A stretch of 64,000 bases of DNA, from the sequence record MN176217; one strand, written 5' to 3'. A program made the translations under genes and the position numbers. Numbering within the stretch: position 1 is the stretch's first letter; each line of letters starts with the position of its first letter. Under the pieces are notes generated by a model. The model worked only from the letters and a program-made list of their open reading frames with translations, was not told the DNA's origin and ran no database searches. Below, one piece after another: positions 20,557 to 34,869 of the stretch. The stretch is from Escherichia phage vB_Eco4M-7.

Positions 20557-21696
20557 ATGACTCGCATTAGCCAAACACACTCTCGCCTCCCAGCGAGCAA
20601 GGTGCGCCCTTTTGATATGCAATCCGTTACTGATGCGGCTGTTTCCCAGCTTGCTCGTATCGGTATTGTGTTTGATTCCGCGATTGTGCGTGATCAGATT
20701 GAGCACTTAAACCGTGCAGGCGCTTTTCGCGTAGGTGACGCCGCGTTTACTGCGCCGCAGACTACTCCGTCAATCCCGACCCCGTTGCAATTCCTGCAGC
20801 AGTGGTTGCCTGGCTTCGTCAAAATCATGACCGCTGCTCGTAAAATCGACGAACTGGTTGGTATTGATACCGTTGGTCAGTGGGAAGATGCAGAAATCGT
20901 TCAGGGTATCGTTGAACCAGCTGGCACCGCAGTTGAATATGGTGATTTCACCTCTATTCCTCTGGCAAGCTGGAACGTAAACTTTGAACGTCGTTCTATC
21001 GTTCGTGGCGAAATGGGCATGGCAGTTGGTATGCTGGAAGAAGGCCGCGCGTCTGCGATGCGTCTGAACTCCGCAGAAACCAAGCGCCAGCAGGCTGCTG
21101 TATCTCTGGAAATCATGCGTAACGCAATCGGCTTCTATGGCTGGTACAACGGGAACAACCGTACATTCGGCTTCCTGAATGATCCAAACCTGCCAGCGGC
21201 GATGACTTCCAACACCACTTCCGGCTGGGCTACTGCGACCTTCCAACAGGTGACTGCAGACATCCGTTTGATGGTTCGTCAAATTCGTGTGAACTCTCAG
21301 GACCAGATTGATCCAGAGAAGGTTGACATGACTCTGGCACTGCCGACCAACTCTATCGATTGGCTGTCCAACACCACTGACTTCGGTATTTCTGTACGTG
21401 ACTGGATCACCCAGACTTATCCGAAGATGAAGATCAAGTCTGCACCGGAACTCAACGGCGCACTTGGCAGCAACCCGACTTTCTTGAACGTGGCATACCT
21501 GTACGCTGATCACATTGATTCCTCAATCGATGGTTCAAGCGATGATGGTTCCGTATTCAGTCAGCTGGTTCAAACCAAGTTCATGACTCTGGGCGTTGAA
21601 AAGCGTGCTAAGAGCTACGTCGAAGACTACGCAAACGCAACAGCAGGCGTTCTGCTCAAGCGTCCTTTCGCAGTCGTCCGTATGACTGGTATTTAA
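20557..21696 (+). CDS. Major capsid protein
   Basis: 379 aa, position after scaffold, composition typical of HK97-fold capsid proteins. Confidence 0.65.
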
Positions 21697-21811
21697 TTGC
21701 TGTGATTACACAGTAAAACACATGGGGCGTGGTCGAAAGGCTTCGCCCCATATCAATAGACCTCAAGGGCTGTAGGGGCTTATTTGAGGCTTATATAAAT
21801 AGGACTACAAA

Positions 21812-22276
21812 ATGTCAAAATACATCGTTTCAACTATGTCTATGTCAGTAAACTACACCTTCTATACGGAAGTGAAAGAAAACCCGAATGCAAAAGCTGG
21901 TTCAGGCGCTCTTCCAAATATTCGCAAACAGATTCTAATCAAGGGCGGCGCTGGTCTTACTTCAGAAACTTCCGGCTTTGGTGAAATGGCAAAAGGCGCT
22001 GACGGTGCACCTTTGTGGACTCCTGAAGGAATCGTCACCGTTGTAAGCGATGCAGATTTTGAGCATCTGAAAGATCACCACGTGTTTAAGCAGCATCTTG
22101 AAAAAGGTTTGGTGAAAGTCGTAAATCACGACATTGTTGGCAATCACAAAGCCGTCGCTAAAGAAGTTCGCAGCATGTCAGACGACCCGTTTGCGCCTAT
22201 GACGCGCGAAACTGCTGACAAGCGCATCAAGGTGAAATTGAGCGGCGACCAAGAAGATGATTTATTCCGCGTTTAA
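21812..22276 (+). CDS. hypothetical structural protein
   Basis: ORF 154 aa after capsid gene. Confidence 0.4.
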   Translation: MSKYIVSTMSMSVNYTFYTEVKENPNAKAGSGALPNIRKQILIKGGAGLTSETSGFGEMAKGADGAPLWTPEGIVTVVSDADFEHLKDHHVFKQHLEKGLVKVVNHDIVGNHKAVAKEVRSMSDDPFAPMTRETADKRIKVKLSGDQEDDLFRV

Positions 22277-22290
22277 ATAAGGTGAATGCC

Positions 22291-22746
22291 ATGTCATTAG
22301 ATTACGAAAAGTTCAGAATTAAATTTCCACAGTTTGCTGATCAGGTTAAATTCCCTGACACAACACTTCAAGTATTCTATGACATGGCATGTGAATTTAT
22401 TGAATCACAAGACAGTCCTTGTCGTGTTTTAAATGGCAGTAAATTGGAGCTGGCATTGGAATATATGACGGCTCATCTTTTATGCATAGCCGCAGACCAA
22501 CAAGTGTCTGTGTCTTCTGGTGACGGAGTTGAACAAGGCGGCTTCGTGACTGGCGCAACAATTGGTGACATCACAGTGAACAAAGTCGCGCCGCCTGCGA
22601 GTGATGGCTGGGAATACTGGCTATCAAGCACTCCATATGGCATGGCGCTGTGGGCGCTTCTTCAAGCACTGGCCGTTGGCGGCTTGTCATTCGGCGGTCT
22701 TCCAGAGCGTGAAGGATTCCGTAAAATTGGTGGGGTATTCTGGTGA
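22291..22746 (+). CDS. Head-tail connector / adaptor candidate
   Basis: ATG 22291 with AAGGTG RBS; position between capsid and tail genes. Confidence 0.35.
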   Translation: MSLDYEKFRIKFPQFADQVKFPDTTLQVFYDMACEFIESQDSPCRVLNGSKLELALEYMTAHLLCIAADQQVSVSSGDGVEQGGFVTGATIGDITVNKVAPPASDGWEYWLSSTPYGMALWALLQALAVGGLSFGGLPEREGFRKIGGVFW

Positions 22747-23129
22747 GGATTCCTGGCGTAAACTTATATCGAGTTGCGACAAAGGTTATCGGTCGCCAAC
22801 CGATTCAATATTACATGTACAAGGGGCGCACCCTTGATAAGATGCGCAACTATGTCACTACATATGAAAAACCAATCACCTTGCTTGCTTCGGTGCAGGC
22901 TGTACTTCGAAACCAATACGTTGAGCTTGGTTTAGAGCTTCAAAAGAACTATGTTAAAATCTGGGTGGACAAAGACATTGTTGACCTTGACCGCGACGCT
23001 TCCGGCGACTATTTTGTGTTTGGTGGCAAAACGTACAAGATGGAAGATGAAACGACATGGTTTGACCAAGATGGTTGGACGACTTGCCTTGCCGTGGAAG
23101 TAAAACAAAGCTTTCCAGTGTCTACTTGA
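22743..23129 (+). CDS. Head-tail joining protein candidate
   Basis: GTG start overlapping upstream stop; 128 aa. Confidence 0.35.
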   Translation: MRIPGVNLYRVATKVIGRQPIQYYMYKGRTLDKMRNYVTTYEKPITLLASVQAVLRNQYVELGLELQKNYVKIWVDKDIVDLDRDASGDYFVFGGKTYKMEDETTWFDQDGWTTCLAVEVKQSFPVST

Positions 23130-23130
23130 G

Positions 23131-23712
23131 GTGTATATGACAGATGTCGACCTGATTGACATGCTGGCAACGCGAATTGAAGAAGGTCTGGCGGCGTATA
23201 GTCGTGCAGACCTTTCTGCTGTTCCGGTCCAGAAAAAATACCAACCGACTCAACAGGGCATTCCGACTGGTGATCAGATTTGGTTTAACCTTTTATTCTC
23301 AGTCCCATTCGGTTGGTCAATGAGAAAGAATGAATTTGTCAATGATGAATCTCAATTCGTTAATGGCAAATTTAAAGACATTGAAGATCAGATATACGCA
23401 ACACGTTTTCAAATTAGCGGCTTATTTCCAGAAGTGCCTGGCAATCCAGAAAAGCCTACGGCTAATGACGTTTTGACTTATTTAGCAAGATTCATAACCC
23501 ACAAGGCTAATTTGAGGGATTGGTTTAAAAGGCATCAAGCTTCAGTATATAGAGTCGACATGAACAACAATGAAAAGTTCTATGACGACATGTCTCAGTT
23601 TGAATCGTTTCCTTCTTTTGATTTGGTAATCCTTCACAGAAACGCAATTTCAATTGACACGCCTGCTGTTGCAAGAGCTGTTAATAACGATTTAGGCGAT
23701 ATTCCGGTGTGA
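23131..23712 (+). CDS. hypothetical structural protein
   Basis: ORF 193 aa; GAGGTG RBS. Confidence 0.4.
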   Translation: MYMTDVDLIDMLATRIEEGLAAYSRADLSAVPVQKKYQPTQQGIPTGDQIWFNLLFSVPFGWSMRKNEFVNDESQFVNGKFKDIEDQIYATRFQISGLFPEVPGNPEKPTANDVLTYLARFITHKANLRDWFKRHQASVYRVDMNNNEKFYDDMSQFESFPSFDLVILHRNAISIDTPAVARAVNNDLGDIPV

Positions 23713-23713
23713 T

Positions 23714-24199
23714 ATGACAAAATCAAAAATGATAGAAAAACAGATAAAGGCGCTTCAATCGATGAAGGGTCTTACTGTTGAGGCAGGATGGTTTGATTCT
23801 ACCAGATACCCTTCAGAAACTGGTGGAGAAGGAGTGTTGGTGTCAGAAGTCGCGCGGCTTAATGAATTTGGTCACATAGCCGTTTTGAACTTTGGACAAG
23901 GGCCAGTCAGGGTAGAAGTTCCACCCAGACCATTCATGAGATATGCCTATGAATTATTCGTTAGTGAGCGCAGTGAAATAGAGAATAAAATTGCTAAAAA
24001 GATTTTTTCCGGTAAAATAGACGCTAGACAGGCATTAGGTCAAATTGGGCTTGCGATGGAAGCAAAGATTGTCGAATCAATTAAAAACGGACCTTGGCAA
24101 AGAAACGCCAGATATACCGTGCGTGTGAAAGGATTCGACAAACCTTTAATTCACAGCAGCCTTATGTGGCAATCTGTCAACAGCCAAGTCATTAAATAA
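23714..24199 (+). CDS. Tail completion / neck protein candidate
   Basis: ORF 161 aa immediately upstream of sheath gene. Confidence 0.35.
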   Translation: MTKSKMIEKQIKALQSMKGLTVEAGWFDSTRYPSETGGEGVLVSEVARLNEFGHIAVLNFGQGPVRVEVPPRPFMRYAYELFVSERSEIENKIAKKIFSGKIDARQALGQIGLAMEAKIVESIKNGPWQRNARYTVRVKGFDKPLIHSSLMWQSVNSQVIK

Positions 24200-24211
24200 G
24201 AGGACACCGAC

Positions 24212-25750
24212 GTGATCAGTCAATCTCGTTATATTAAAATTGTATCAGGGGTCGGAGCAGGCGCGGCTGTTGCAGTTCGCAAACTGTCGCTTCGCATCAT
24301 GACTTCCAATACAGTCCTGCCGCCTGGCATTGTAGCAGAATTTTCAACTGCTGATGCCGTTGGATCATATTTCGGTTTTTCTTCCGAAGAATACAAGCGT
24401 GCAGCATTGTATTTTGGATTCATCAGCAAGCAAATCAACTCGCCTGATTCAATCAGCTTTTCTCGCGTTGTATCCACGGCGATTCCTGCAATGGTTATCG
24501 GCGATACTGAGCCTAAAACGCTTGCTACTTTTCAGGCATTCACTGGCGCTATCTTAAGCATCACTTATGACGGCACAGACTACCTGACTGACGCCATCAA
24601 CCTTTCAGCGGCAACAAGCCTTGCCAACGTAGCGGAACTTTTGGAAACGGCAATCAACACCAAGTTTGCAGCCGAAGGTGGCACGTCGGTGCCTGCACTT
24701 GCTGATGCAGAAGTGTATTGGAATGCCAACACCCAGCAGTTCACTTTGGAAGCCGCTACGTCGACCGCTGGTGCTGGAAACCTTTCGATTAACGTCACAG
24801 GTCAACCGACAGACCCATCTCAGGCGCTTGGTTGGACGACTACTGGCACCGTTACGGTTGCTGGCCAGGGTGTAGCAAGTCCGGTAGAAGCCATCGCGGC
24901 ATCTGTGGAGATTTCCAACAACTTTGGCTCATTCCTTTTCGCTGGAGCAAACCGAACGCTGGAAGAAATCACAGCCGTTGCAGCTTGGACTCACTCGCAG
25001 AACAATATGTACATGTATCTGTTCTCGACTGCATTCGCCAACATTGGCTCATACTATACCGCACTGAAAGGTTACTCAGGCGTTGGTATGATGATCCGTG
25101 CAACCAACCTTGCGAATGATTACATCGACCAGGCACCTGCTGAAATTCTCGCGGCGACAAACTATAATACTGTAAATGCAACTCAAAACTACATGTACTA
25201 TCAGTTTGACACGCGAAATGTTACTGTATCGACTGATTCACGCGCAGATACTGCTGATCAAAACCGTGCAAACTATATCGGCGCTACTCAGCAAGCTGGT
25301 CAAACGCTCGCATTTTTCCAGCGTGGCGTTCTGATGGGCGGGTCTACCGCAGCAGTTGACATGAACACTTATGCCAACGAGATGTGGCTTAAATCTGCTA
25401 TCACTTCTCAGCTGTTCAGCATGTTCTTGGATCTTGGTCGCGTGCCTGCAAACGAAGAAGGCAAAGCGACTGTCCAAGCAATGATTCAAGTTGCTGTTGA
25501 CAATGCGAAGGTTAACGGCACCATCTCTGTCGGTAAGGCGCTGACGGAAATCCAGAAACAGTACATCACGCAAACTTCCGGTGATAACACTGCTTGGCGG
25601 CAGGTTGAGACTATCGGTTATTGGTTGACTGTCGATTTTGACACTGAAACCACTTCCGATAACCGCACCGAATACTATGCAACATACACGCTAATCTACT
25701 CTAAAGATGATGCTGTGCGTCGCGTTGAAGGTCGTGACGTTCTTATTTAA
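24212..25750 (+). CDS. Tail sheath protein
   Basis: 512 aa, GTG start with AAGAGGA RBS, followed directly by tube gene. Confidence 0.6.
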   Translation: MISQSRYIKIVSGVGAGAAVAVRKLSLRIMTSNTVLPPGIVAEFSTADAVGSYFGFSSEEYKRAALYFGFISKQINSPDSISFSRVVSTAIPAMVIGDTEPKTLATFQAFTGAILSITYDGTDYLTDAINLSAATSLANVAELLETAINTKFAAEGGTSVPALADAEVYWNANTQQFTLEAATSTAGAGNLSINVTGQPTDPSQALGWTTTGTVTVAGQGVASPVEAIAASVEISNNFGSFLFAGANRTLEEITAVAAWTHSQNNMYMYLFSTAFANIGSYYTALKGYSGVGMMIRATNLANDYIDQAPAEILAATNYNTVNATQNYMYYQFDTRNVTVSTDSRADTADQNRANYIGATQQAGQTLAFFQRGVLMGGSTAAVDMNTYANEMWLKSAITSQLFSMFLDLGRVPANEEGKATVQAMIQVAVDNAKVNGTISVGKALTEIQKQYITQTSGDNTAWRQVETIGYWLTVDFDTETTSDNRTEYYATYTLIYSKDDAVRRVEGRDVLI

Positions 25751-25797
25751 ATAATTGCCGCCGTAACTGGCGGCCATCTCTCTGAGAGGAATCTGTA

Positions 25798-26265
25798 ATG
25801 ATTAACGTTTCCGGTTTTGGCGCTTCGATTCGTTTGGTAGCATCAAACACTTTTCCGAATGGTGTGACTCTTTCTGATTTTGCAGATGATGCTGATCCGA
25901 TTGACGCGCCGGACCTGCAAATCTCTGAGGCCGCAATGGGCCTTAACGGTGACTTAGTAGTATGGAACCGTGCAAACCCGCTTGAAGTTGGCGTGAACAT
26001 CATCCCTACTTCTGAAAGTGATGTCAACTTGGACGTTCTTGCAGCTGCAAACCGCGTAGGCAAGCGTAAGAACTCCGCAAAAGACGTGATCACACTTGTG
26101 CTGACTTATCCTTCTGGAATGGTTATCACGCTAAACAAAGGCACCTTGACAACTGGTTCAGTAATTCCTGGCATCCAGTCTCAAGGTCGTGTGAAAACAC
26201 GCCAATATCGCTTCAAGTTTGAGAACGTAGTCAAAACTGGCGTGAGCAACCAAGAGATTTTATAA
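25798..26265 (+). CDS. Tail tube protein
   Basis: 155 aa, directly downstream of sheath; paralog of 27216..27713. Confidence 0.55.
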   Translation: MINVSGFGASIRLVASNTFPNGVTLSDFADDADPIDAPDLQISEAAMGLNGDLVVWNRANPLEVGVNIIPTSESDVNLDVLAAANRVGKRKNSAKDVITLVLTYPSGMVITLNKGTLTTGSVIPGIQSQGRVKTRQYRFKFENVVKTGVSNQEIL

Positions 26266-26594
26266 TGTATCAAATACCACTTGACAGCGTACCTAACCAG
26301 AATATCAGCTTTAACGTTGACGGTGCATATTGGCAGTTGCACATTTTTGCCGCTATCGAGCATATGTGTGCCGACGTATATCGCAATGGTGAACTTTTGA
26401 TTCAAGGGGTGCGCTGTTTTGATGGTATCCCAATGGTGCCTTATAAGTATCTCATGATTGGGTACGGTAATTTCATTTTCGACAGCGTACCTGATTATGA
26501 AAGTTTTAACTCTGGCGGCTGTAATCTATATTACATGTCAGAATCTGAGTTGGCTGAATTCCAGGCCACTGCTGAAGCGGAGTTTGCAATTTGA
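26265..26594 (+). CDS. hypothetical tail protein
   Basis: ORF 109 aa. Confidence 0.35.
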   Translation: MYQIPLDSVPNQNISFNVDGAYWQLHIFAAIEHMCADVYRNGELLIQGVRCFDGIPMVPYKYLMIGYGNFIFDSVPDYESFNSGGCNLYYMSESELAEFQATAEAEFAI

Positions 26595-26947
26595 CAACTC
26601 TAACCATTGAAGTGAACGAAAATAATGACCTTTTTCTACCTGATGGAAGAAACTTAAATATTCTTTCAGGAGAAAAAGCGATGGTGCAAGTAATCAAGGC
26701 CGCGCATCAGATGCGACTTGGTGAAGACTTGTACGATATAGAAAACGGGGTCGATTATTTGGGGACCGTTTTCAAGTCGCCCGTTGACGAAGACGGTGCG
26801 CGAAAGTCGATTGCAGATGCTATTCTGAAGAAAGCAGACGTTGCCGGAATCGACTCATTGACTGTCACCATCCAAAACGGTATCCTTGGATTCACTGCAG
26901 AAGTGGTGACTATTTATGGCGAACGTATAAAGGTGAGTAATCAATAA
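26591..26947 (+). CDS. hypothetical tail protein
   Basis: ORF 118 aa. Confidence 0.4.
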   Translation: MTTLTIEVNENNDLFLPDGRNLNILSGEKAMVQVIKAAHQMRLGEDLYDIENGVDYLGTVFKSPVDEDGARKSIADAILKKADVAGIDSLTVTIQNGILGFTAEVVTIYGERIKVSNQ

Positions 26948-27213
26948 TGGCACAAGTAATTCATTTTGCAAATGGCGTCATGAAATTTGGCGAAAAATTT
27001 GAAGACGCATCAGAGCTGTTTAATAAGAAGGTTGAGCCTGTTACAGAAATCAAAGAGCAGGTCGAAGAAAAGTCCGTTGAACAAAAACTCGATTTTGATT
27101 CCATGAGTGTTTCAGAATTGAAGTCTTATGCCAAAGAAAATGGCATCGACATCAAGGGTCTTTCTTATAAGGATGAAATTCTTGCTGCAGTTAAATCTGC
27201 ATCTGCGGAGTAA
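26947..27213 (+). CDS. Small protein with C-terminal HeH / Rho-N-like motif
   Basis: C-terminus SVSELKSYAKENGIDIKGLSYKDEILAAV resembles helix-extension-helix DNA-binding motifs. Confidence 0.4.
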   Translation: MAQVIHFANGVMKFGEKFEDASELFNKKVEPVTEIKEQVEEKSVEQKLDFDSMSVSELKSYAKENGIDIKGLSYKDEILAAVKSASAE

Positions 27214-27215
27214 AA

Positions 27216-27713
27216 ATGGTCAATATTAGTGGATTTGGCACAAGCATTAGAATTGTCGCTCTTCAATCTTTTCCTGTTGGGCTGAATATCAGTTCTTTGT
27301 CTGATGACCAGGATTCGCTAATTATTGAGGAAGTTGAATCAGTAGGTTATCAACTTACTTACGACGGCGGCATTTGCATATACGACAAAGCCGCCGTCGT
27401 TCGCGTATCCATTGCGGTCATTCCAAACACTGAAGATGACATAAATCTTAAGCTTTTATTATCTGCCCGTAAAGGTGGATTCAAGTGGTTGCCAATTCAG
27501 GATGTGACATCAATGCTTATTACATATCCTGACGGTGGAAGGGTGGCATTCTCTAACGGAACAATAATCAGCGGTCCGCTTGGTGACTCCATAGAGCAAT
27601 CAGGCCGTCGCAAGACAAACCGATACACATTTGTGTTTGCCAGCTACGGCGGCGCGCAGAGCACGTCTCAAATTGCCAAGGGCGTGGTGCAGAGCATATT
27701 GGGGTCCATTTAA
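27216..27713 (+). CDS. Tail tube protein paralog
   Basis: Shares MxNxSGFGxSIRxVA, IPNTEDDINL and ITYPxG blocks with 25798..26265. Confidence 0.5.
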   Translation: MVNISGFGTSIRIVALQSFPVGLNISSLSDDQDSLIIEEVESVGYQLTYDGGICIYDKAAVVRVSIAVIPNTEDDINLKLLLSARKGGFKWLPIQDVTSMLITYPDGGRVAFSNGTIISGPLGDSIEQSGRRKTNRYTFVFASYGGAQSTSQIAKGVVQSILGSI

Positions 27714-28246
27714 TGGCTATCGATTTACTGTCATATAGTCTATCAAACAGAAGCTTCACGATAAAGAGCTTCAACCTTGGAGAAGTATCCACGCTTGGAT
27801 GGGCCATAGTCAACGTCAAAATAAGACTCCAAGCGAAGATATTCAAAAACCAAAGGGAAGACGGCAGCTATATTGTCGATGGCAGAGTAAAGATGCCGCG
27901 AATACTCACTGTCACCGTGATAGCGCAAACGAAAAGTGCATCAGATGCAATAGCTAAAATGCTGCAAAACAGGTCGACTATATACACAATTAATTCCCGT
28001 GGTCTAATATTCGAACGTATGGTGCTGCAAAATAACAACTTCAGCCAGGACGCTGACAATATAACGTCTCAGCCCATACAATTGGTCTTCCATGAGATAT
28101 TAACACAGCAGGATGTGTCTATTCAAACAGCGCAGGCAGGCGACTCAACAGTAATAGAGCGCGGCATTGCATACATAAAAGAAACTTCTGCCAGCGTCAC
28201 TGGCGTCGCTACAAAGGTGATGAATGGTATCAAGGGGATGTTCTGA
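27713..28246 (+). CDS. hypothetical tail protein
   Basis: ORF 177 aa. Confidence 0.4.
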   Translation: MAIDLLSYSLSNRSFTIKSFNLGEVSTLGWAIVNVKIRLQAKIFKNQREDGSYIVDGRVKMPRILTVTVIAQTKSASDAIAKMLQNRSTIYTINSRGLIFERMVLQNNNFSQDADNITSQPIQLVFHEILTQQDVSIQTAQAGDSTVIERGIAYIKETSASVTGVATKVMNGIKGMF

Positions 28247-28806
28247 TGGACTTCGTTTCGATTCTGCTTTCTGGTCAATCTTTGACCATAACGAATGAGT
28301 CAACAGGTCTTCCTGTCTGGACAAGGCTTTCACCTGTTTCTGCAGAAATAACATCCCCAGCAGAAACAACTCAATTCCCTCTTGCCGGTACAGCCATGCA
28401 GGTTGTCGAAGTATCAAGCACGTCATCAGTAAGCAATTTACAGGCGGCAAAGGTTGTAATGCCAGCCCATATGGCGTTAAACGTAATTTGCAATGACCAG
28501 TCTACAATTGAAAATATCATAAATTCATTTGATGATGACGAAGTCACATTTTCAATAACTTCTCGAAGCATCATTGCCAGTAAAATGTCGATGTCCGACG
28601 TTGAAATAACCCAGTCAGAAGAAAACTTGAATGGAGTCTCAATAGTAATAACTTTCGAGCAAACGTCATTTAGCATTCAAGGAAGCTTCGACCCTAAACA
28701 ATCTGCAGACGAATCATCAAATGGTGTTGCTATTAAAGAACCAGTCAGTTTGACTACAACTGTGAGTTCGTTATATAATAAAATAAAATCAACAGTAGGA
28801 ATATAA
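28246..28806 (+). CDS. hypothetical tail protein
   Basis: ORF 186 aa. Confidence 0.4.
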   Translation: MDFVSILLSGQSLTITNESTGLPVWTRLSPVSAEITSPAETTQFPLAGTAMQVVEVSSTSSVSNLQAAKVVMPAHMALNVICNDQSTIENIINSFDDDEVTFSITSRSIIASKMSMSDVEITQSEENLNGVSIVITFEQTSFSIQGSFDPKQSADESSNGVAIKEPVSLTTTVSSLYNKIKSTVGI

Positions 28807-28807
28807 A

Positions 28808-29224
28808 ATGAAGATCACCAACAAACAAACTGGTCGTACAGTAGAAATTAAAATCAGCAAAATGACTGCGATGGAAGGCTGGAATATTCAACGTCGCTTT
28901 GTCGAATTTGCAATGTCGAAGGACCCTGCGTTTCGTTCAGAGTATACGATGGAAGTGTTGAGCTTCGCAAAAGTCGAGCTTGATGTGGGCCAAGAAATCC
29001 CATTAAGTACTGGTGCACTAATTGACAACCATCTTGGTGACTGGGAAAACCTTAAAGAAGTCTTCGAAGCAGTCCTCATGGAGAACGGTATAAACCCAGA
29101 TACTCACGCCGAGCGTGAAGGCTACTGGGAACAAGCTGGCGGCGAAATGGCTGCAGCATTCATCGGCGAATCGATGCGATTAATCGCGCCATTCCTCAGC
29201 GGCGAGACTCCAAACAAGGGGTAA
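28808..29224 (+). CDS. Tail assembly chaperone candidate
   Basis: 138 aa acidic protein immediately upstream of tape measure. Confidence 0.4.
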   Translation: MKITNKQTGRTVEIKISKMTAMEGWNIQRRFVEFAMSKDPAFRSEYTMEVLSFAKVELDVGQEIPLSTGALIDNHLGDWENLKEVFEAVLMENGINPDTHAEREGYWEQAGGEMAAAFIGESMRLIAPFLSGETPNKG

Positions 29225-29227
29225 ACT

Positions 29228-31408
29228 GTGTCTGACTCATTAGAAAAATTTGTGCTTCAATATACGGTGGACTTGAAAGAGTCCATCAATCGTCTTGAGC
29301 AATTGCAAGATAAGGTTGATCAGACAAACAAAAAGGCAAAATCCGCTGGCAAAGATTTCTCTGGAGCATTCAAAGATGTTTTTGGCGAGCTAAAGCCGCT
29401 TACTGGTGAGCTAGGGTCAATTGACGGAATACTTGCGCGGCTGACATATCGTTTTGCCGCGCTCGTCCCTGTTGTCGCAGGATTGGCCGTCGTCGTCAAA
29501 TCCATCGTTGATGTTCGAAAAGAATACGAAGCGCAAAGAAAGCTTGGTTTTGAAGCCGGACTCTCTCCAATGGGTGTCGAACAACTACAACGACAGTTGA
29601 ATGAAAGTTCAGGGGGCATCCTTGGCGCACAGGGGTCGCGCGATTTAATCAGCAAAGCTTCTAATTTGGCATTCAACGCATACACCAACCCTGATGTGAT
29701 GAACAAGGACAACTTGTTGCTGAACAAGATGGGGACAAGTCCTTTCAACAGTAACGGCGGCATCAAAGACACGAATCAGCTGCTTGATGAAATTGGAACA
29801 AAGCTGAGAAGTGTTAATGAGCAAACCGCGCGTGCCATTGGTGCTCTGGCAGGATTCACGGCTGATGAAGTCCGCGCCCTTCGTGAGCGCAACCAGTCTG
29901 TGAAAGAAAGCACGCGCATAAGTGACGAAGAAACCGCGAAGCTGCAAAGACAGCAAGCTGCTCTTGAGACTATACGAAATAGTATGGGGCAAATTCAAGA
30001 AGATTGGCGGCGTATTGAACTGGTCATCGGTGAAAACGTTATGCCTGCATTCTCGACGCTTGTCAGCAAAACCGCCGATACAGTCGAAGGATTCCAGATG
30101 ATGTTCCAAAGAATGTCTGACGGATGGAGCGAATTTGTCGACAATTTCATTGCTGACTTGAAACATCCGTTCGACAAGCAGGCCGCTGTCAACGAGCGTC
30201 ACGAGCGTGCCGTTGATAGATGGATCACGCAGATGGCAGACGGCGATGTGAAACGCCAGAGGAATCAAGAGCAGAACGCTGCTGAACAACGTTCTGCACA
30301 GGCGCTTTTCACTCGTGATATAAATCTTTTTTCAAGCGCCGTGTCAACTTTTGCTGGCGTGATTGATGAGCGTCAAGCTTGGGCGGCATGGGCAGGTGAA
30401 ATTGGGCGCAGCGCAGGGCAATCCGCGATGCCTGGAACGCCTGCATTGAATACTGGCGCGACCATAGGGAATAATCTTGGGTCAGGAAACCCGACAGTGT
30501 ATGACTCAATATATGAGGAAGCTTCAAAACGCTATGGCATACCTGTGGCGATGATGAAGGCCGTGACTGAAGTTGAATCTGGATTCAATCCAAATGCTGT
30601 GAGCGGAGCAGGCGCGACTGGTTTGATGCAAATAATGCCTTCTAACTTCAAGGGTCTTGGAATAACCGATGGCAATGATCCTCGACAAAACATTATGGGC
30701 GGCGCTCAACTGTTGAAAGAGTATTTAAACGCTGCCAACGGCGATTGGAATCTTGCGCTGACGATGTATCACGGTGGCTACGACCGCAGCGGCTGGGGCA
30801 AGAATACACGCGCTTATCCTGGAAAGGTCATGGCCGCTCTCGACCGACAATCCAATGGTGAGTATGCCACGGCAGCGCCGCAAGGTGCACCAGTTACTCC
30901 AGTACTTAGCGGTAGCGGAGCGGAAGCGCCAAAGGGCAGCTATGCACCAGTACAAGGCCAATCGCGCCAAACGGTGCAATACAGGCAATTGCAAGAAGCC
31001 ATTGCAGGATACCTGAACGTACCAGTTGAGCAGTTGATGCAGGGACAAGTCAACAAAGGTGATATTGACTTTGCTCAAACTTACCTTAAGCTTGGCACGC
31101 AAAGGGATTATATTAAAAACATGCAACTGGCTTCAACTCCAGGTGTAAGACCGAACATTCAAGCCGAAGCGATGAAAAACGCTCGTCTTGCTGCATTCCA
31201 GCTTGAAGCATTCCAGAAATATGGCGGCGACCTTTCCGCGAATAGTCGACCTGGTGGGCGTGATATTACTATGGGTCAGAAAAACGTTGTCATCAACGTC
31301 AACGGCGCTCAAGACCCACGCAGCACGGCATTCGAAACGAAACGGGTGCTTGAACAAGATGATATCAACGACATAAACAACCTTACTGCTACACCTTTGA
31401 AGTGGTGA
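29228..31408 (+). CDS. Tail tape measure protein with lytic transglycosylase (SLT) domain
   Basis: 726 aa, helical N-terminal half; SLT motifs VTEVESGFNPNAVSGAGATGLMQIMP. Confidence 0.8.
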   Translation: MSDSLEKFVLQYTVDLKESINRLEQLQDKVDQTNKKAKSAGKDFSGAFKDVFGELKPLTGELGSIDGILARLTYRFAALVPVVAGLAVVVKSIVDVRKEYEAQRKLGFEAGLSPMGVEQLQRQLNESSGGILGAQGSRDLISKASNLAFNAYTNPDVMNKDNLLLNKMGTSPFNSNGGIKDTNQLLDEIGTKLRSVNEQTARAIGALAGFTADEVRALRERNQSVKESTRISDEETAKLQRQQAALETIRNSMGQIQEDWRRIELVIGENVMPAFSTLVSKTADTVEGFQMMFQRMSDGWSEFVDNFIADLKHPFDKQAAVNERHERAVDRWITQMADGDVKRQRNQEQNAAEQRSAQALFTRDINLFSSAVSTFAGVIDERQAWAAWAGEIGRSAGQSAMPGTPALNTGATIGNNLGSGNPTVYDSIYEEASKRYGIPVAMMKAVTEVESGFNPNAVSGAGATGLMQIMPSNFKGLGITDGNDPRQNIMGGAQLLKEYLNAANGDWNLALTMYHGGYDRSGWGKNTRAYPGKVMAALDRQSNGEYATAAPQGAPVTPVLSGSGAEAPKGSYAPVQGQSRQTVQYRQLQEAIAGYLNVPVEQLMQGQVNKGDIDFAQTYLKLGTQRDYIKNMQLASTPGVRPNIQAEAMKNARLAAFQLEAFQKYGGDLSANSRPGGRDITMGQKNVVINVNGAQDPRSTAFETKRVLEQDDINDINNLTATPLKW

Positions 31409-31412
31409 TAAT

Positions 31413-32285
31413 TTGAAAAAGAGAATCCTTAAAGTCACCTTATCTATGCCGGATGGCACAAGCCAAGTGCTTGATGAAGGATTGATGCTCAGATGCCGAA
31501 TCAAAAAGGCAGCACTTTCCGTGCAGAATAAGGCCACAATCGAAGTTGCAGGATTGACAGGGTACTTGAGAGAGTACCTGCTTTCCAACTTCACCGCATT
31601 CAACAAACGTCTGCGTGATCAAGGCCAATTGGCGGCGAATTATGTCAACGTAACAATTGAAGCTGGATATAGAGAAGGCAACGTTGTTAGTAGCAACTTA
31701 GTCTACAAGGGGCAAGTCACAACGGTCGAGATAACAGCGCCGCCGCCGAACATCGTCATACGCATCACTTGCTACACCAACCAGATAAACAGGACTAAGT
31801 TTATCACTCAAGCTGCACCGTCAAACCCAACATTCAAAGAGTTTGTGGAGTGGTCGGCAAAGCAAATGGACATTGATACTGTTATATGCGATACTTCGAT
31901 TAACAATCAGCGCCTTGTTAACCCAGGCCGCACAACATATGTTGCAGCCGCCTTGTTGCTTGAGATTCAGAACTATCAAAGGAACTCTATTGCGGCATAT
32001 ATCGATGATGATACGCTCATCGTCAAGGATAAAGACAAAATTCTGAATCCAGAACAGATAACGGTGATTGAGGAATTTGTCGGAATACCGATGTGGAACG
32101 AGTGGGGTGCTGACTTCACTTGCATGTATAACGCGGATTTGAAGCTTGCCCAAGGTGTGAAATTCAAATCAGTCTTAAACCCAAGCTTGAACGACACCAC
32201 ATTTGTCATCATGCAACTTGAATATGATTTAGCAAGTCGTGATGATATATTTACGGTGACGGGCGGCGTTGCACCATCGGCCTAA
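31413..32285 (+). CDS. Tail / baseplate hub protein candidate
   Basis: 290 aa directly after tape measure; TTG start (alternative ATG 31446). Confidence 0.4.
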   Translation: MKKRILKVTLSMPDGTSQVLDEGLMLRCRIKKAALSVQNKATIEVAGLTGYLREYLLSNFTAFNKRLRDQGQLAANYVNVTIEAGYREGNVVSSNLVYKGQVTTVEITAPPPNIVIRITCYTNQINRTKFITQAAPSNPTFKEFVEWSAKQMDIDTVICDTSINNQRLVNPGRTTYVAAALLLEIQNYQRNSIAAYIDDDTLIVKDKDKILNPEQITVIEEFVGIPMWNEWGADFTCMYNADLKLAQGVKFKSVLNPSLNDTTFVIMQLEYDLASRDDIFTVTGGVAPSA

Positions 32286-32287
32286 AT

Positions 32288-32809
32288 ATGAGAAAGAATA
32301 AAGTAATTGAGCTGTTTGGAGTTACTTATGAAATACATCAATTCAGCGCAATAGACGCGTTTGAAATGGTTGATGCGATAAGCATATTAACTCCACTTGA
32401 ATTATTAAGTGAATGTTATGTTATTAAATATGACGGAACTAAAGTCAGATTAAACTCTGAGAAGGCCATAAGTGAAGAAGTGAAAAGTGTGCCAAATCAC
32501 TTGCCGCCCAACCTTGTATTGAAAGTTCTAATGGAAGCGGTGAAGAAGCACAATTTTGGATTCCTCAGTGATTGGAAAGGCACTAAGATCCCAAATAGAT
32601 TCTTGGCTGACGTCCCGACCGTAGAGCCTAATTATCTTGAGCCGATGGTTGCAAGCCTAATAAACAATGGTCTTGCTTCGTTAAAAGAATTGGAAGAATA
32701 TTATTCATTGCGTGATGCATTCGCTATGTTTGATGGACTAATAGCAAAATCACTTAATGAAGCCTACTCAAACGAAGCTGCCATTAAAGAATCAAAGTCA
32801 AATCGCTAA
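32288..32809 (+). CDS. hypothetical baseplate-region protein
   Basis: ORF 173 aa. Confidence 0.4.
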   Translation: MRKNKVIELFGVTYEIHQFSAIDAFEMVDAISILTPLELLSECYVIKYDGTKVRLNSEKAISEEVKSVPNHLPPNLVLKVLMEAVKKHNFGFLSDWKGTKIPNRFLADVPTVEPNYLEPMVASLINNGLASLKELEEYYSLRDAFAMFDGLIAKSLNEAYSNEAAIKESKSNR

Positions 32810-32866
32810 AATATTGCTTATAGACTCCTTATAGATTATAATTTGTTGATCAGATCTAAGGAGTCT

Positions 32867-33595
32867 ATGATGGCAGAAAAGTTAACCCAACTTACAAGCC
32901 CCAACCAAACTGACAAATCAAGTATGTTTGCCGCGCTGCAGGGAATGCTGGACCGTGGCAAGTATACCACTGACGGCATGATTCCTGCACAAGTAATATC
33001 TTATGACCGCAAACAAAATTTAGCAGTCATAAAGCCTGTTATTCATTTCGTAAGTCTTGATGATAAACCAGTGGAGCGTCAACCTTTGGTGTCAATTCCT
33101 GTATTGGCAATTGGCGGCGGCGGCTTCGTGATCAACTTTCCTTTGAAAGAGGGCGATTTGGGCTGGATATTCGCTGGCGACCGCGAGTTGTCGACATTCC
33201 TTGAAGAATTGAAGCCGACCGCGCCTACCAATGGCCGCGCGAAAACTTTCGCTGATGGACTGTTCATACCGGATGTATTCCGAAAATACACCATAAGCGG
33301 AGAGGATGCAGGCTCAATGGTAATTCAGTCACTCAGCGGCGCTGTACGAATCGCATTAAGTGATGACTCGATAAACATAACTGCATCGGCTGGAGTAAAT
33401 GTGAAAACACCAATAACCACTATCGACCAACAATTGATAGTTAATGGAAAGGCAACGTTCAATGGTGGTATAGAAGGGAAAGAAGGAACGACGGCAACGC
33501 TTCCGACTGGCACAACAATCGGCGGCACAAATGTATCCACTCACGGTCACATAGGTAACGGACCTGGAAACAGAACTGGGGATATGATAGAATGA
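32867..33595 (+). CDS. Baseplate protein (spike / gpV-like candidate)
   Basis: ATG 32867 after TAAGGAG RBS; just upstream of baseplate J. Confidence 0.4.
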   Translation: MMAEKLTQLTSPNQTDKSSMFAALQGMLDRGKYTTDGMIPAQVISYDRKQNLAVIKPVIHFVSLDDKPVERQPLVSIPVLAIGGGGFVINFPLKEGDLGWIFAGDRELSTFLEELKPTAPTNGRAKTFADGLFIPDVFRKYTISGEDAGSMVIQSLSGAVRIALSDDSINITASAGVNVKTPITTIDQQLIVNGKATFNGGIEGKEGTTATLPTGTTIGGTNVSTHGHIGNGPGNRTGDMIE

Positions 33596-34863
33596 GTGCA
33601 CAATATTCTTACATAGTAAGCACTGGTGTAATAACCATCGACACAGCCGATTTGCTGGCTGACGTTCAAAGTGAATGGATTGAGTCATTAGGGGTCGGGC
33701 TTGACGTTGATGCCTCGACACCGCAAGGCACCCTAATCGCAACGGAGACTTTGGCAAGAACTTCAGTGATGAAGAACAACGCCGAGCTGGGAAGTCTCAT
33801 CAACCCAAATTATTCGTATGGCGTATACCTTGATGCCATCGCGGCATTGCTTGGGATTGAGCGAACTAAAAACATCAGCACGATGCTAAAAGGAATTACC
33901 GCAGAAGGAATGCCGCTGTTGGAGATTCCTGCTGGAAGTTTGCTGACGGATTCAAACGGTACATACTGGTATGTTCTGGAAGACGTTCAAATCGCTTCGA
34001 CTGGCAAGACAAGCAATATGACTCTTGCATCAAAAGAGTACGGCTCATTCACTGTTGCGCCTGATGAAGAGTTTACCGTGGTGCAAGGATATGACGTCAT
34101 CGGATGGTCAAGAACGTATTCAACATCAGCAACGACGACCGTACCAGGTACGCAATACATGGGCGACGGAGCGTTAAAGGCCGCTCGCGTTAAGCGCCTT
34201 TACCAGCAGGGAATTGCATCGCTTGGTGCTATTCGCGCTCGCGCCATGTCGGTCGACGGCGTGGAATCGGTTATGGTCGTGGAGAACGACACGGGATTGC
34301 CTGGAACGGTGCGCGGCATCACCTTTTCAACGCCTAACGGTGTCTGGGTGTGCGCAAGCGGAACGTTCGATAAGCAAGTTTTTGCTGAGACTATTTTCAA
34401 GGCAAAGATGGGCGGCCAGCCGTGGGACTTTGGTGCTACCAACCAGGGTGATCCAGTCAACTCGCCTGATGGAATAGAAGTTGTCGACGAAGAATCGCAA
34501 CTGTCTTATTTCGTAAAGTTCAACACTGCTGTCATATATGACTTGTATGTCGATATTACTGTTGTAAGAGGCACCGCAACCGCCGATGCCGAATCTATTA
34601 TTGCCGCTGTGTTGAATTACGGTAATGGAAATTTTAACGGCGAGCAAGGATATGCAGTGGGCCAATCTCAATCTTCTTTTGAGATTGCTTCAGCAGTGTC
34701 TTGCGAGTATCCAGGTCTGTACATTAAAGATTGCAAAATTGCAGCAGTAAAAAGCGGACAGGCAGCGCCAAATTATCCATCCGATTACGGCAGCGAGTGG
34801 ATTGCCAACCCTTGGGATAAGGCGAATACTATGCGCGGCTTCATCAACGTTAAATTTGTGTGA
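33592..34863 (+). CDS. Baseplate J-like protein
   Basis: 423 aa; position and composition typical of baseplate wedge J family. Confidence 0.55.
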   Translation: MSAQYSYIVSTGVITIDTADLLADVQSEWIESLGVGLDVDASTPQGTLIATETLARTSVMKNNAELGSLINPNYSYGVYLDAIAALLGIERTKNISTMLKGITAEGMPLLEIPAGSLLTDSNGTYWYVLEDVQIASTGKTSNMTLASKEYGSFTVAPDEEFTVVQGYDVIGWSRTYSTSATTTVPGTQYMGDGALKAARVKRLYQQGIASLGAIRARAMSVDGVESVMVVENDTGLPGTVRGITFSTPNGVWVCASGTFDKQVFAETIFKAKMGGQPWDFGATNQGDPVNSPDGIEVVDEESQLSYFVKFNTAVIYDLYVDITVVRGTATADAESIIAAVLNYGNGNFNGEQGYAVGQSQSSFEIASAVSCEYPGLYIKDCKIAAVKSGQAAPNYPSDYGSEWIANPWDKANTMRGFINVKFV

Positions 34864-34869
34864 GGAACT

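Follow-up and report, generated by a model that had tools for sequence, protein, structure and literature searches.

Two genes on the + strand of the window, the whole 64,000-nucleotide stretch of Escherichia phage vB_Eco4M-7 DNA that was analysed (MN176217), very probably encode the major tail tube (25798–26265, 155 aa; hereafter A) and an old duplicate of it that forms a single ring in the baseplate (27216–27713, 165 aa; hereafter B). The evidence obtained in this analysis comes from paralogy, orthology, synteny, fold prediction, selection and lineage distribution. The arrangement is already known from cryo-EM of related Pseudomonas phages, and the finding about A and B is real but ordinary. 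The phage belongs to the genus Wifcevirus.

The original prediction had described A and B as clear paralogs, and pairwise alignment upheld this: BLASTP aligned 143 aa without gaps, with 33% identity, 61% positives and an E value of 2e-32. Both proteins matched the Pfam family PF22764 (E217_Gp32) from end to end, A with 203.8 bits (1.2e-60, positions 1–143 of 144) and B with 180.4 bits (1.9e-53, positions 2–143 of 144), these being full-length matches above the gathering score of 27 bits. The similarity is far above chance, and A and B are confirmed as real paralogs. Three sequence blocks had been proposed as common to both. The block MxNxSGFGxSIRxVA is present exactly in A and B (MINVSGFGASIRLVA and MVNISGFGTSIRIVA, respectively), but IPNTEDDINL is the sequence of B only, A having IPTSESDVNL in the corresponding place (5/10 identical), and ITYPxG has to be shortened to TYPxG, given that B reads ITYPDG and A reads LTYPSG. 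Structure prediction, which had been suggested as a check, pointed in the same direction. The AF2 model of A (pLDDT 80.5) showed 9b42_M as its top match (TM 0.86/0.89), and its fold compared with the tube chains of E217 gp32 and Pa193 gp33 at TM 0.82–0.89. The model of B, of moderate confidence (pLDDT 73.9, from a 19-sequence alignment), had 9b45_M as its top match (TM 0.80/0.87, rmsd 2.5 Å) and was also close to 8env_I (TM 0.79/0.85). Both models thus match tube-type chains, which supports the view that A and B are tail-tube-fold proteins. A minus-strand ORF that overlaps the tube gene (25743–26093, 116 aa) is without support and was taken as spurious.

Each paralog has its own counterpart among proteins of solved structure. 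In a phmmer search against PDB, A matched 9b42_M ("gp33 Tail tube") at 1.4e-48 and 8fuv at 4e-42, but a baseplate tube only at 2.5e-25, whereas B matched 9b45_M ("gp37 Baseplate tube") at 1.1e-52 and 8env_I ("gp36") at 2.2e-49, against 1.4e-21 for the tail tube. BLASTP against the proteome of Pseudomonas phage E217 repeated this reciprocal pattern, with B scoring 180 bits for gp36 versus 92 bits for gp32. A is orthologous to the major tail tube protein (E217 gp32 / Pa193 gp33; PDB 8fuv, 9b42): its top reciprocal match is a helical-tube chain, it is 54% identical to gp32, and it likewise lies directly after the sheath gene, starting 48 nt past the sheath end coordinate 25750, with no difference of consequence. 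The orthologs of B are E217 gp36, "tail tube-B" (PDB 8env/8eon, under the name "Ripcord gp36 / Baseplate component gp36"), and Pa193 gp37, "baseplate tube" (PDB 9b45). B is their reciprocal best match, 51–52% identical over the full length (51% to gp36), with 165 versus 167 aa, the C-terminal extension described below, and a predicted fold at TM 0.79–0.87. Its gene is also in the same place: plug, sheath initiator and a small variable gene precede it, and ripcord-1 and ripcord-2 come immediately after. It differs from them in coming from an Escherichia phage, a Wifcevirus, and in being without a 2-residue insertion before position 94.

According to BLASTP, 21 genes of the window (20557–37608) are collinear, gene for gene, with E217 gp25–gp45. 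The collar is found at 22743–23129 (Pfam E217_gp28). The + strand carries the gateway or tail terminator-type neck protein, ortholog of E217 gp29 (23131–23712; Pfam E217_gp29 3.2e-38, 30% identity to gp29), and the tail sheath, ortholog of E217 gp31 (24212–25750; Pfam DUF3383 5e-119, PHROG 205 "tail sheath", 53% identity to gp31). The genes described next, as far as the hub, are all on this strand. A is followed by the baseplate adaptor or plug, a Pam3 gp18-type ortholog of E217 gp33 (26265–26594; Pfam Pam3_gp18 8.8e-17, 43% identity to gp33), and by the sheath initiator, a T4 gp25-like ortholog of E217 gp34 / Pa193 gp35 (26591–26947; PHROG 120 "baseplate wedge subunit" 8e-21, 44% identity to gp34), for which the Pfam Sheath_initiator match was sub-threshold only, and whose annotation in phage Mansfield cites HHpred similarity to T4 gp25. 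A variable slot, here an 88-aa SAP-domain protein (26947–27213; Pfam SAP 8e-6), precedes B. Directly after B lie ripcord-1, a 177-aa Dit-like ortholog of E217 gp37 / Pa193 gp38 and homolog of the tube initiator (27713–28246; Pfam Gp38_E217 3.4e-10, Dit_like 5.8e-5, PDB 9b45_S "Ripcord-1" 1.1e-20), and its distant paralog ripcord-2, of 186 aa and also Dit-like, ortholog of E217 gp38 / Pa193 gp39 (28246–28806; Pfam Gp38_E217 1.8e-71, PDB 9b45_V "Ripcord-2" 1.3e-27). The homolog of E217 gp39 (28808–29224; 52% identity, PHROG 4627 of unknown function, no Pfam match) is, judging from its position, a candidate tape-measure chaperone. It is followed by the tape measure, a 726-aa homolog of E217 gp40 with an SLT lytic transglycosylase domain (29228–31408; Pfam SLT 2.8e-24, PHROG 2013 "lytic tail protein" 3e-139, tape-measure PHROGs, 29% identity to gp40), and by the baseplate hub, ortholog of E217 gp41 (31413–32285; Pfam E217_GP41 3.4e-118, 49% identity to gp41).

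From the start of the tube gene (25798) to the start of the tape measure (29228) there are 3430 bp, in agreement with the 3.4 kb given originally. Seven genes lie between the two (plug, sheath initiator, variable small gene, tube-B, the two Dit-like ripcord paralogs and the gp39 homolog); the number of eight that had been reported is reached only when the tube gene itself is counted. This interval is indeed longer than the canonical tube, chaperone, tape measure arrangement, but it is not peculiar to this genome: it is a gene order conserved throughout the Pbunavirus/Wifcevirus-like lineage, made up of baseplate-core components of known structure. It is long because this lineage places the plug, the sheath initiator, tube-B, ripcord-1 and ripcord-2 upstream, not downstream, of the tape measure. 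The order A, plug, sheath initiator, variable gene, B, ripcord-1, ripcord-2 was kept in about 35 related IMG/VR loci, and the same order was seen in every locus with A and B and enough flanking sequence. Regarding the variable slot, unrelated ORFs fill it in different loci, and the 88-aa protein showed no similarity to E217 gp35, so that it was rejected as a diverged form of gp35. Among the records searched, it was matched in 28 Wifcevirus records only, and MS found it in purified particles from two phages; this virion-associated SAP-domain protein may represent an uncharacterised virion component.

The distribution of the paralogs was traced in related loci. In a sister group of phages from metagenomes, a single tube gene (S) and a single Dit-like gene stand in the canonical, Pam3-like arrangement, and clade-specific HMMs (E ≤ 10, filters off) detected no hidden, diverged tube-B within 6 kb on either side in these single-tube relatives. 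Tube-B can therefore be regarded as an extra ring specific to the lineage. In a neighbour-joining tree clade B was monophyletic; the tree is unrooted and has no outgroup, and its midpoint root, which parts B from A and S, fits either a duplication before the single-tube split or a faster-evolving B. Median lengths were 165 aa for clade B, 153 for A and 148 for S. Proteins of clade B extend about 10–17 aa beyond the tube core and end in a consensus tail, F.GAQS...Q..L. The last ~15 residues, which set B apart from A, were not modelled in either cryo-EM structure (chains of 151–152 of 167), and this conserved tail may be the determinant of the extra ring. The tube and Dit-like duplications co-vary perfectly in the loci sampled, which suggests one evolutionary step. 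We see an even chance that phages with an E217-type sheath, tube, gateway, hub and plug follow two discrete tail-core designs, a Pam3-like minimal one, with one tube and one Dit-like initiator gene located after the tape measure, and that of Pbunavirus/Wifcevirus, with both genes duplicated and the whole baseplate core shifted to the upstream side of the tape measure, and that a single step both added the ring and turned the initiator into a heterohexamer of the 3+3 type.

The position of these proteins in the virion has been described for the two Pseudomonas phages. In E217, gp36 is a hexamer concentric to gp32 that provides the platform for 3x gp37/gp38 and is kept on the tip after contraction, with one gp36 ring for 34 gp32 rings (PMC10329688); the description of Pa193 gp37 matches that of gp36 (PMC11456595). 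In cryo-EM each of them is seen as a single hexameric ring at the tube's distal end; in E217 this ring stands on the 3+3 gp37/gp38 ring (PMC10329688, PMC11456595). No Wifcevirus virion structure was found in the published literature searched, so that for this phage the position of the ring and its copy number are read from orthologs with 51–54% identity. By homology, B of this phage would have the same stoichiometry, ring position and behaviour on contraction. A would polymerise into stacked hexameric rings inside the contractile sheath, and six copies of B would assemble into one ring on the tube axis, at the tube's distal end. The upper face of this ring would offer the surface for the first true tube ring, and its lower face would seat a heterohexamer of three ripcord-1 (27713–28246) and three ripcord-2 (28246–28806) subunits, which would step the symmetry from six-fold down to the trimeric hub (31413–32285) and the spike. 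The B ring would be part of the inert baseplate "cap" and, as in E217, would remain at the tube tip after contraction.

The original prediction had offered tube initiator or terminator as possible roles for the second paralog. The initiator side is roughly right, in that the ring would be proximal to the baseplate and the tube would build on B. However, B showed no Pfam match to Dit_like or Gp38_E217, the domains of the Pam3 gp17 type (a tube-like beta-barrel with a C-terminal domain that points outward), whereas the two downstream genes did, and the counterpart of the "tube initiator" Pam3 gp17 would by homology be this Dit-like pair (27713–28806) and not B. The other half of the proposal, in which B is a terminator or cap at the head-proximal end of the tail, is very improbable. 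It could appeal to the tube-like fold of B, since some contractile-system terminators derive from the tube fold, and to the AFP and PVC cap entries returned by Foldseek, which were weak matches only (TM ~0.4). Nevertheless, in E217 and Pa193 the orthologs of B were modelled in the maps of the baseplate and not in those of the neck, baseplate-core genes directly adjoin B in every related locus, and the window has its own collar (22743–23129) and gateway (23131–23712) as separate neck-side genes. Neither A nor B matched the terminator/gateway families E217_gp29 and Phage_tail_terminator_9, the gateway homolog being 23131–23712. The terminator role is thus contradicted by the homologous structures and by the distinct collar and gateway genes.

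Virion proteomics had also been proposed as a check, on the understanding that finding only one paralog in virions would count against the pair. Published MS of CsCl-purified vB_Eco4M-7 contains both: A (16.5 kDa) with 6 peptides and a score of 283, and B (17.6 kDa), weakly, with 3 peptides and a score of 4.5 (PMC7048862). B was absent from the list of proteins detected in ECML-117 virions. MS scores are not quantitative, but the gap of about 60-fold between B and A fits a large difference in copy number. This gap argues against a heteromeric tube in which A and B co-polymerise along the entire tail, an arrangement that might be expected from the inter-subunit beta-sandwich scaffold and the 19 near-invariant positions that they have in common. 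Clade B, moreover, has its own signature in the extended beta-turn (LYDG..F..DKA, where the other tube has GLNGD...W) besides its C-terminal extension, and in E217 and Pa193 the helical tube is built solely from gp32/gp33 (34 rings in E217), with gp36/gp37 contributing one ring. A mixed tube is hardly more probable than the terminator role, and was ruled out on the E217 and Pa193 structures and the MS abundance. The weak detection of B and its absence from the ECML-117 list would also be compatible with a redundant or decaying duplicate that has no role in the virion. Against this, A and B are under strong purifying selection, with dN/dS of about 0.01 (0.012 for A and 0.011 for B versus phage Mansfield, at dS of about 0.5–0.6, and about 0.48 for B), the ORF of B is intact, at ~165 aa, in every two-copy-lineage locus with complete sequence, and two solved baseplates contain its orthologs as structural components. 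We consider such decay as improbable as the terminator role, and retain the single baseplate ring as the function of B.

In the deposited genome PP596836.1 (100% identity to the window), the eleven genes from the sheath to the tape measure are all annotated as "hypothetical protein", and the tube, tube-B and the two ripcords of close relatives appear as "tail fiber protein", a label present in the Pfam PF22764 description, PHROG 2420 and the BASEL GenBank records. The PHROG and Pfam names are the source of this label, which is a misnomer. The BASEL authors had earlier annotated Wifcevirus structural genes from homology to E217 and Pa193. The tube, tube-B and the ripcords can be named from solved structures, and the practical value of this analysis is improved annotation; because Wifcevirus phages are candidates for E. 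coli O157 biocontrol, an accurate parts list is somewhat useful in practice. The case shows how contractile-tail baseplates gain layers via tube and initiator gene duplication, a principle that, like the specific proteins, was previously described for E217 and Pa193.

The minimal baseplate of cyanophage Pam3 (tube gp14, tube initiator gp17, plug gp18; PMC9942802) has the same parts list as the window, with sheath, tube, tape measure, Dit-like initiator, plug, hub, spike, sheath initiator and wedge common to both, and the plug of the window matching the Pfam family named after Pam3 gp18. A Dit-like profile from the single-tube relatives matched E217 gp37 (5e-10) and Pam3 gp17 (5e-6). In Pam3 there is a single tube gene, and the initiator is one homohexamer whose gene comes after the tape measure; the lineage of the window, in contrast, adds a ring derived from the tube (tube-B), divides the initiator into a 3+3 assembly, and carries all of these genes ahead of the tape measure. 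In T4, gp48 and gp54 are tube-fold proteins of the baseplate–tube junction; the rings that they form lie within the baseplate and separate the hub from the first ring of the tube. A and B showed no detectable sequence relationship with these two proteins, and no T4 entry was among the top 50 Foldseek matches of either model. The principle of tube-fold rings inside the baseplate is the same in T4 gp48/gp54 and in B.

The genes at 25798-26265 (A, 155 aa) and 27216-27713 (B, 165 aa), both on the plus strand, aligned without gaps over 143 residues with 33% identity (E 2e-32), and both matched Pfam PF22764 (E217_Gp32) end to end as well as PHROG 2420. The original prediction of clear tube paralogs was therefore borne out, and the pair had been correctly spotted. 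Of the three motifs it described as shared, the N-terminal one is exact in both proteins, but the other two had been quoted from B alone; their counterparts in A are IPTSESDVNL and LTYPSG. The long interval it reported does measure 3430 bp from the tube start to the tape-measure start, but seven genes lie between them, eight only if the tube gene is included.

We compared both proteins with those of the Pbunavirus virions solved by cryo-EM, E217 and Pa193. In PDB sequence searches, the best match of A was Pa193 gp33 'Tail tube' (9b42_M, 1.4e-48), together with E217 gp32 (8fuv), and its match to the baseplate tube was weaker (2.5e-25). Conversely, B matched best Pa193 gp37 'Baseplate tube' (9b45_M, 1.1e-52) and E217 gp36 (8env_I, 2.2e-49), and more weakly the tail tube (1.4e-21). 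At the sequence level, these matches are reciprocal and unambiguous. The AlphaFold2 model of A (pLDDT 80.5) was closest to 9b42_M (TM 0.86/0.89) and 8fuv (0.82/0.88), with baseplate tubes ranking lower, and that of B (pLDDT 73.9) to 9b45_M (0.80/0.87) and 8env_I (0.79/0.85), with tail tubes ranking lower; the predicted folds show the same pattern as the sequence searches. BLASTP of 22 window ORFs as a set against E217 gp25-gp48 revealed one-to-one collinearity with gp25-gp34 and gp36-gp45, starting at the major capsid gene (20557) and ending at the wedge gene (34870). Within the collinear block 20557-37608, only the 88-aa ORF at 26947-27213 had no E217 counterpart. We conclude that A is very probably the major tube and B the baseplate tube ring (tube-B).

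As in E217, and in identical order, all baseplate-core parts from plug to hub have orthologs in the window: the plug/adaptor (26265-26594, Pfam Pam3_gp18), the sheath initiator (26591-26947), tube-B (27216-27713), ripcord-1 (27713-28246, gp37 ortholog) and ripcord-2 (28246-28806, gp38 ortholog), both with a Gp38_E217/Dit_like domain, a gp39 homolog (28808-29224), the SLT-bearing tape measure (29228-31408) and the hub (31413-32285). The ripcord genes are a second adjacent paralog pair, far more diverged (21% identity, E 2e-4), and their E217 equivalents make a 3+3 heterohexamer. The tape measure (726 aa) carries its lytic transglycosylase domain internally (residues 430-529), as E217 gp40 does, but is 132 aa shorter, which may mean a shorter tail.

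In E217, gp36 ('tail tube-B') resembles the tube protein gp32 (RMSD 3.6 A) and forms one hexameric ring, concentric to gp32, against 34 stacked gp32 rings; three gp37/gp38 heterodimers attach to its surface and provide three-fold symmetry for the trimeric hub gp41 and the tip gp43 (PMC10329688). Together these proteins constitute the baseplate 'cap', and after contraction the tube tip keeps gp36, gp37/gp38 and gp41 (PMC10329688). The Pa193 architecture is the same, with the names 'baseplate tube' (gp37) and 'ripcord-1/-2' (gp38/gp39) (PMC11456595). These names clash, since E217 gp36 was deposited as 'Ripcord gp36' (PDB 8env) and 'ripcord' in Pa193 is the gp38/gp39 pair (PMC11456595); the Pa193 statement that the 'C-termini of gp37 and gp38' bind gp35 seemingly reuses E217 numbering (PMC11456595).

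By analogy with E217, tube-B would act as the ring upon which the first tube ring stacks. The suggestion that the second paralog might be a terminator was excluded, because the neck-side collar (22743-23129) and gateway (23131-23712) have their own genes. The alternative guess, an initiator, would hold for function, given the predicted stacking on tube-B, but not for descent. The 'tube initiator' of cyanophage Pam3, gp17, has a beta-barrel and an outward C-terminal domain (PMC9942802). Dit_like/Gp38_E217 domains were found only in the two genes following tube-B and not in tube-B itself, and a profile made from the Dit-like genes of relatives that have only one matched E217 gp37 (5e-10), Pa193 ripcord-1 (7e-10) and Pam3 gp17 (5e-6). 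Judged from these similarities, the counterpart of gp17 by descent is the ripcord genes rather than tube-B.

Both paralogs gave low dN/dS values between the window and phage Mansfield (A, 0.012 with dS 0.61; B, 0.011 with dS 0.48). Nor is only one of them detected in virions: published mass spectrometry of CsCl-purified vB_Eco4M-7 particles includes vB_Eco4M-7_49 (16.5 kDa, 6 peptides, score 283) and vB_Eco4M-7_53 (17.6 kDa, 3 peptides, score 4.5) (PMC7048862). Masses of the window ORFs agree within 0.1 kDa with these entries and most neighbors, except for _60 (25.4 kDa, versus 26.5 kDa for ORF 32843-33595). In the sister phage ECML-117, the tube, the plug, the sheath initiator and a 9.8-kDa protein were detected, and the 17.6-kDa protein is absent from the list. 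Its weak showing fits a low-copy component, although taken alone this is weak evidence. The acidic 88-aa protein (26947-27213) carries a SAP/HeH-type motif in its C-terminal part (Pfam SAP, 8e-6), shows no similarity to E217 gp35 and was found in 28 records only, all from Wifcevirus; unrelated ORFs occupy its slot between sheath initiator and tube-B in other lineages. It scored very high in the vB_Eco4M-7 particles (2929, 10 peptides, 65% coverage; PMC7048862) and was also detected in ECML-117.

In an NJ tree, the B-type tubes were monophyletic, and the midpoint root, placed with no outgroup, separated them from the A-type tubes plus the single-copy tubes (S) of metagenomic relatives. Mean identities were 46% (A-S), 32% (A-B) and 34% (B-S). 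The chief differences from A/S lie in the extended beta-turn, in which LYDG..F..DKA in B replaces GLNGD...W, and around residues 84-94, where clade B has RK....LP and A/S have ANRVGKGK. Clade B is also extended at its C-terminus by roughly 10-17 aa, which are left out of the E217/Pa193 baseplate-tube chains (151-152 of 167 residues modeled). This clade-specific tail (residues ~145-165 of tube-B, consensus F.GAQS...Q..L) is predicted, at low confidence, to be a helix.

The region 24200-31500 (7.3 kb) is 100% identical to Escherichia phage vB_Eco4M-7n (PP596836.1), and 26 other full-length records match at 89-98%, all from Escherichia/Shigella phages of the genus Wifcevirus. In PP596836.1, every gene from sheath through tape measure is a 'hypothetical protein'; records of BASEL relatives use 'tail fiber protein' for the tube, for its paralog and for the two genes downstream of the paralog. 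As a name for tube, tube-B and ripcords (25798-28806), 'tail fiber protein' is a propagated misnomer, which recurs in the PF22764 description, the PHROG 2420 and 2580 annotations and GenBank records of relatives (PQ850631.1). The sheath initiator appears in PP596836.1 as a short 88-aa CDS (23639-23905); the 118-aa ORF starting with TTG at 26591 more probably represents the real product, because the PHROG 120 alignment begins at residue 1, E217 gp34 and the Bas101 and Mansfield annotations agree in size, and the ORF corresponds to the 12.8-kDa entry in the published mass spectrometry table.

A scan of IMG/VR yielded 80 loci. About 35 carry A and B together, with A 0.9-2.1 kb upstream, in the invariant order A, plug, sheath initiator, variable ORF(s), B, and always exactly two Dit-like genes directly after B. 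In about 40, one A-like tube stands alone, and clade-specific HMMs found no second copy within 6 kb to either side at E<=10; their order is gateway, sheath, tube, small ORF, tape measure, one Dit-like gene, Pam3-type plug, E217-type hub, spike and gp25-like ORF, which is the Pam3 order. Among loci with enough flank, co-variation was perfect: those with two tubes have two Dit-like genes, located ahead of the tape measure, and those with one tube have one Dit-like gene, located behind it. Loci L039-L080 (e.g., L068 3675-11025 and L046 4473-12375), from metagenomic phages with contigs of up to ~53 kb, have E217-type gateway, sheath, tube, hub and plug, one tube and one Dit-like gene in Pam3-like order, and the baseplate core after the tape measure; the overall impression is of a 'minimal' design, sister to the Pbunavirus/Wifcevirus tail.

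Descriptions of E217 and Pa193 already cover the two paralogs, their structural role and the order of the genes, and the BASEL paper described Wifcevirus as distant relatives of Pbunavirus and annotated their structural genes from a Pbunavirus cryo-EM structure; the finding is therefore real but already explained. Our analysis adds functional names for eleven genes that are publicly 'hypothetical' or mislabeled 'tail fiber', and the comparative observation that tube-B and the split initiator occur together, as a lineage-specific addition to a minimal core of the Pam3 type.
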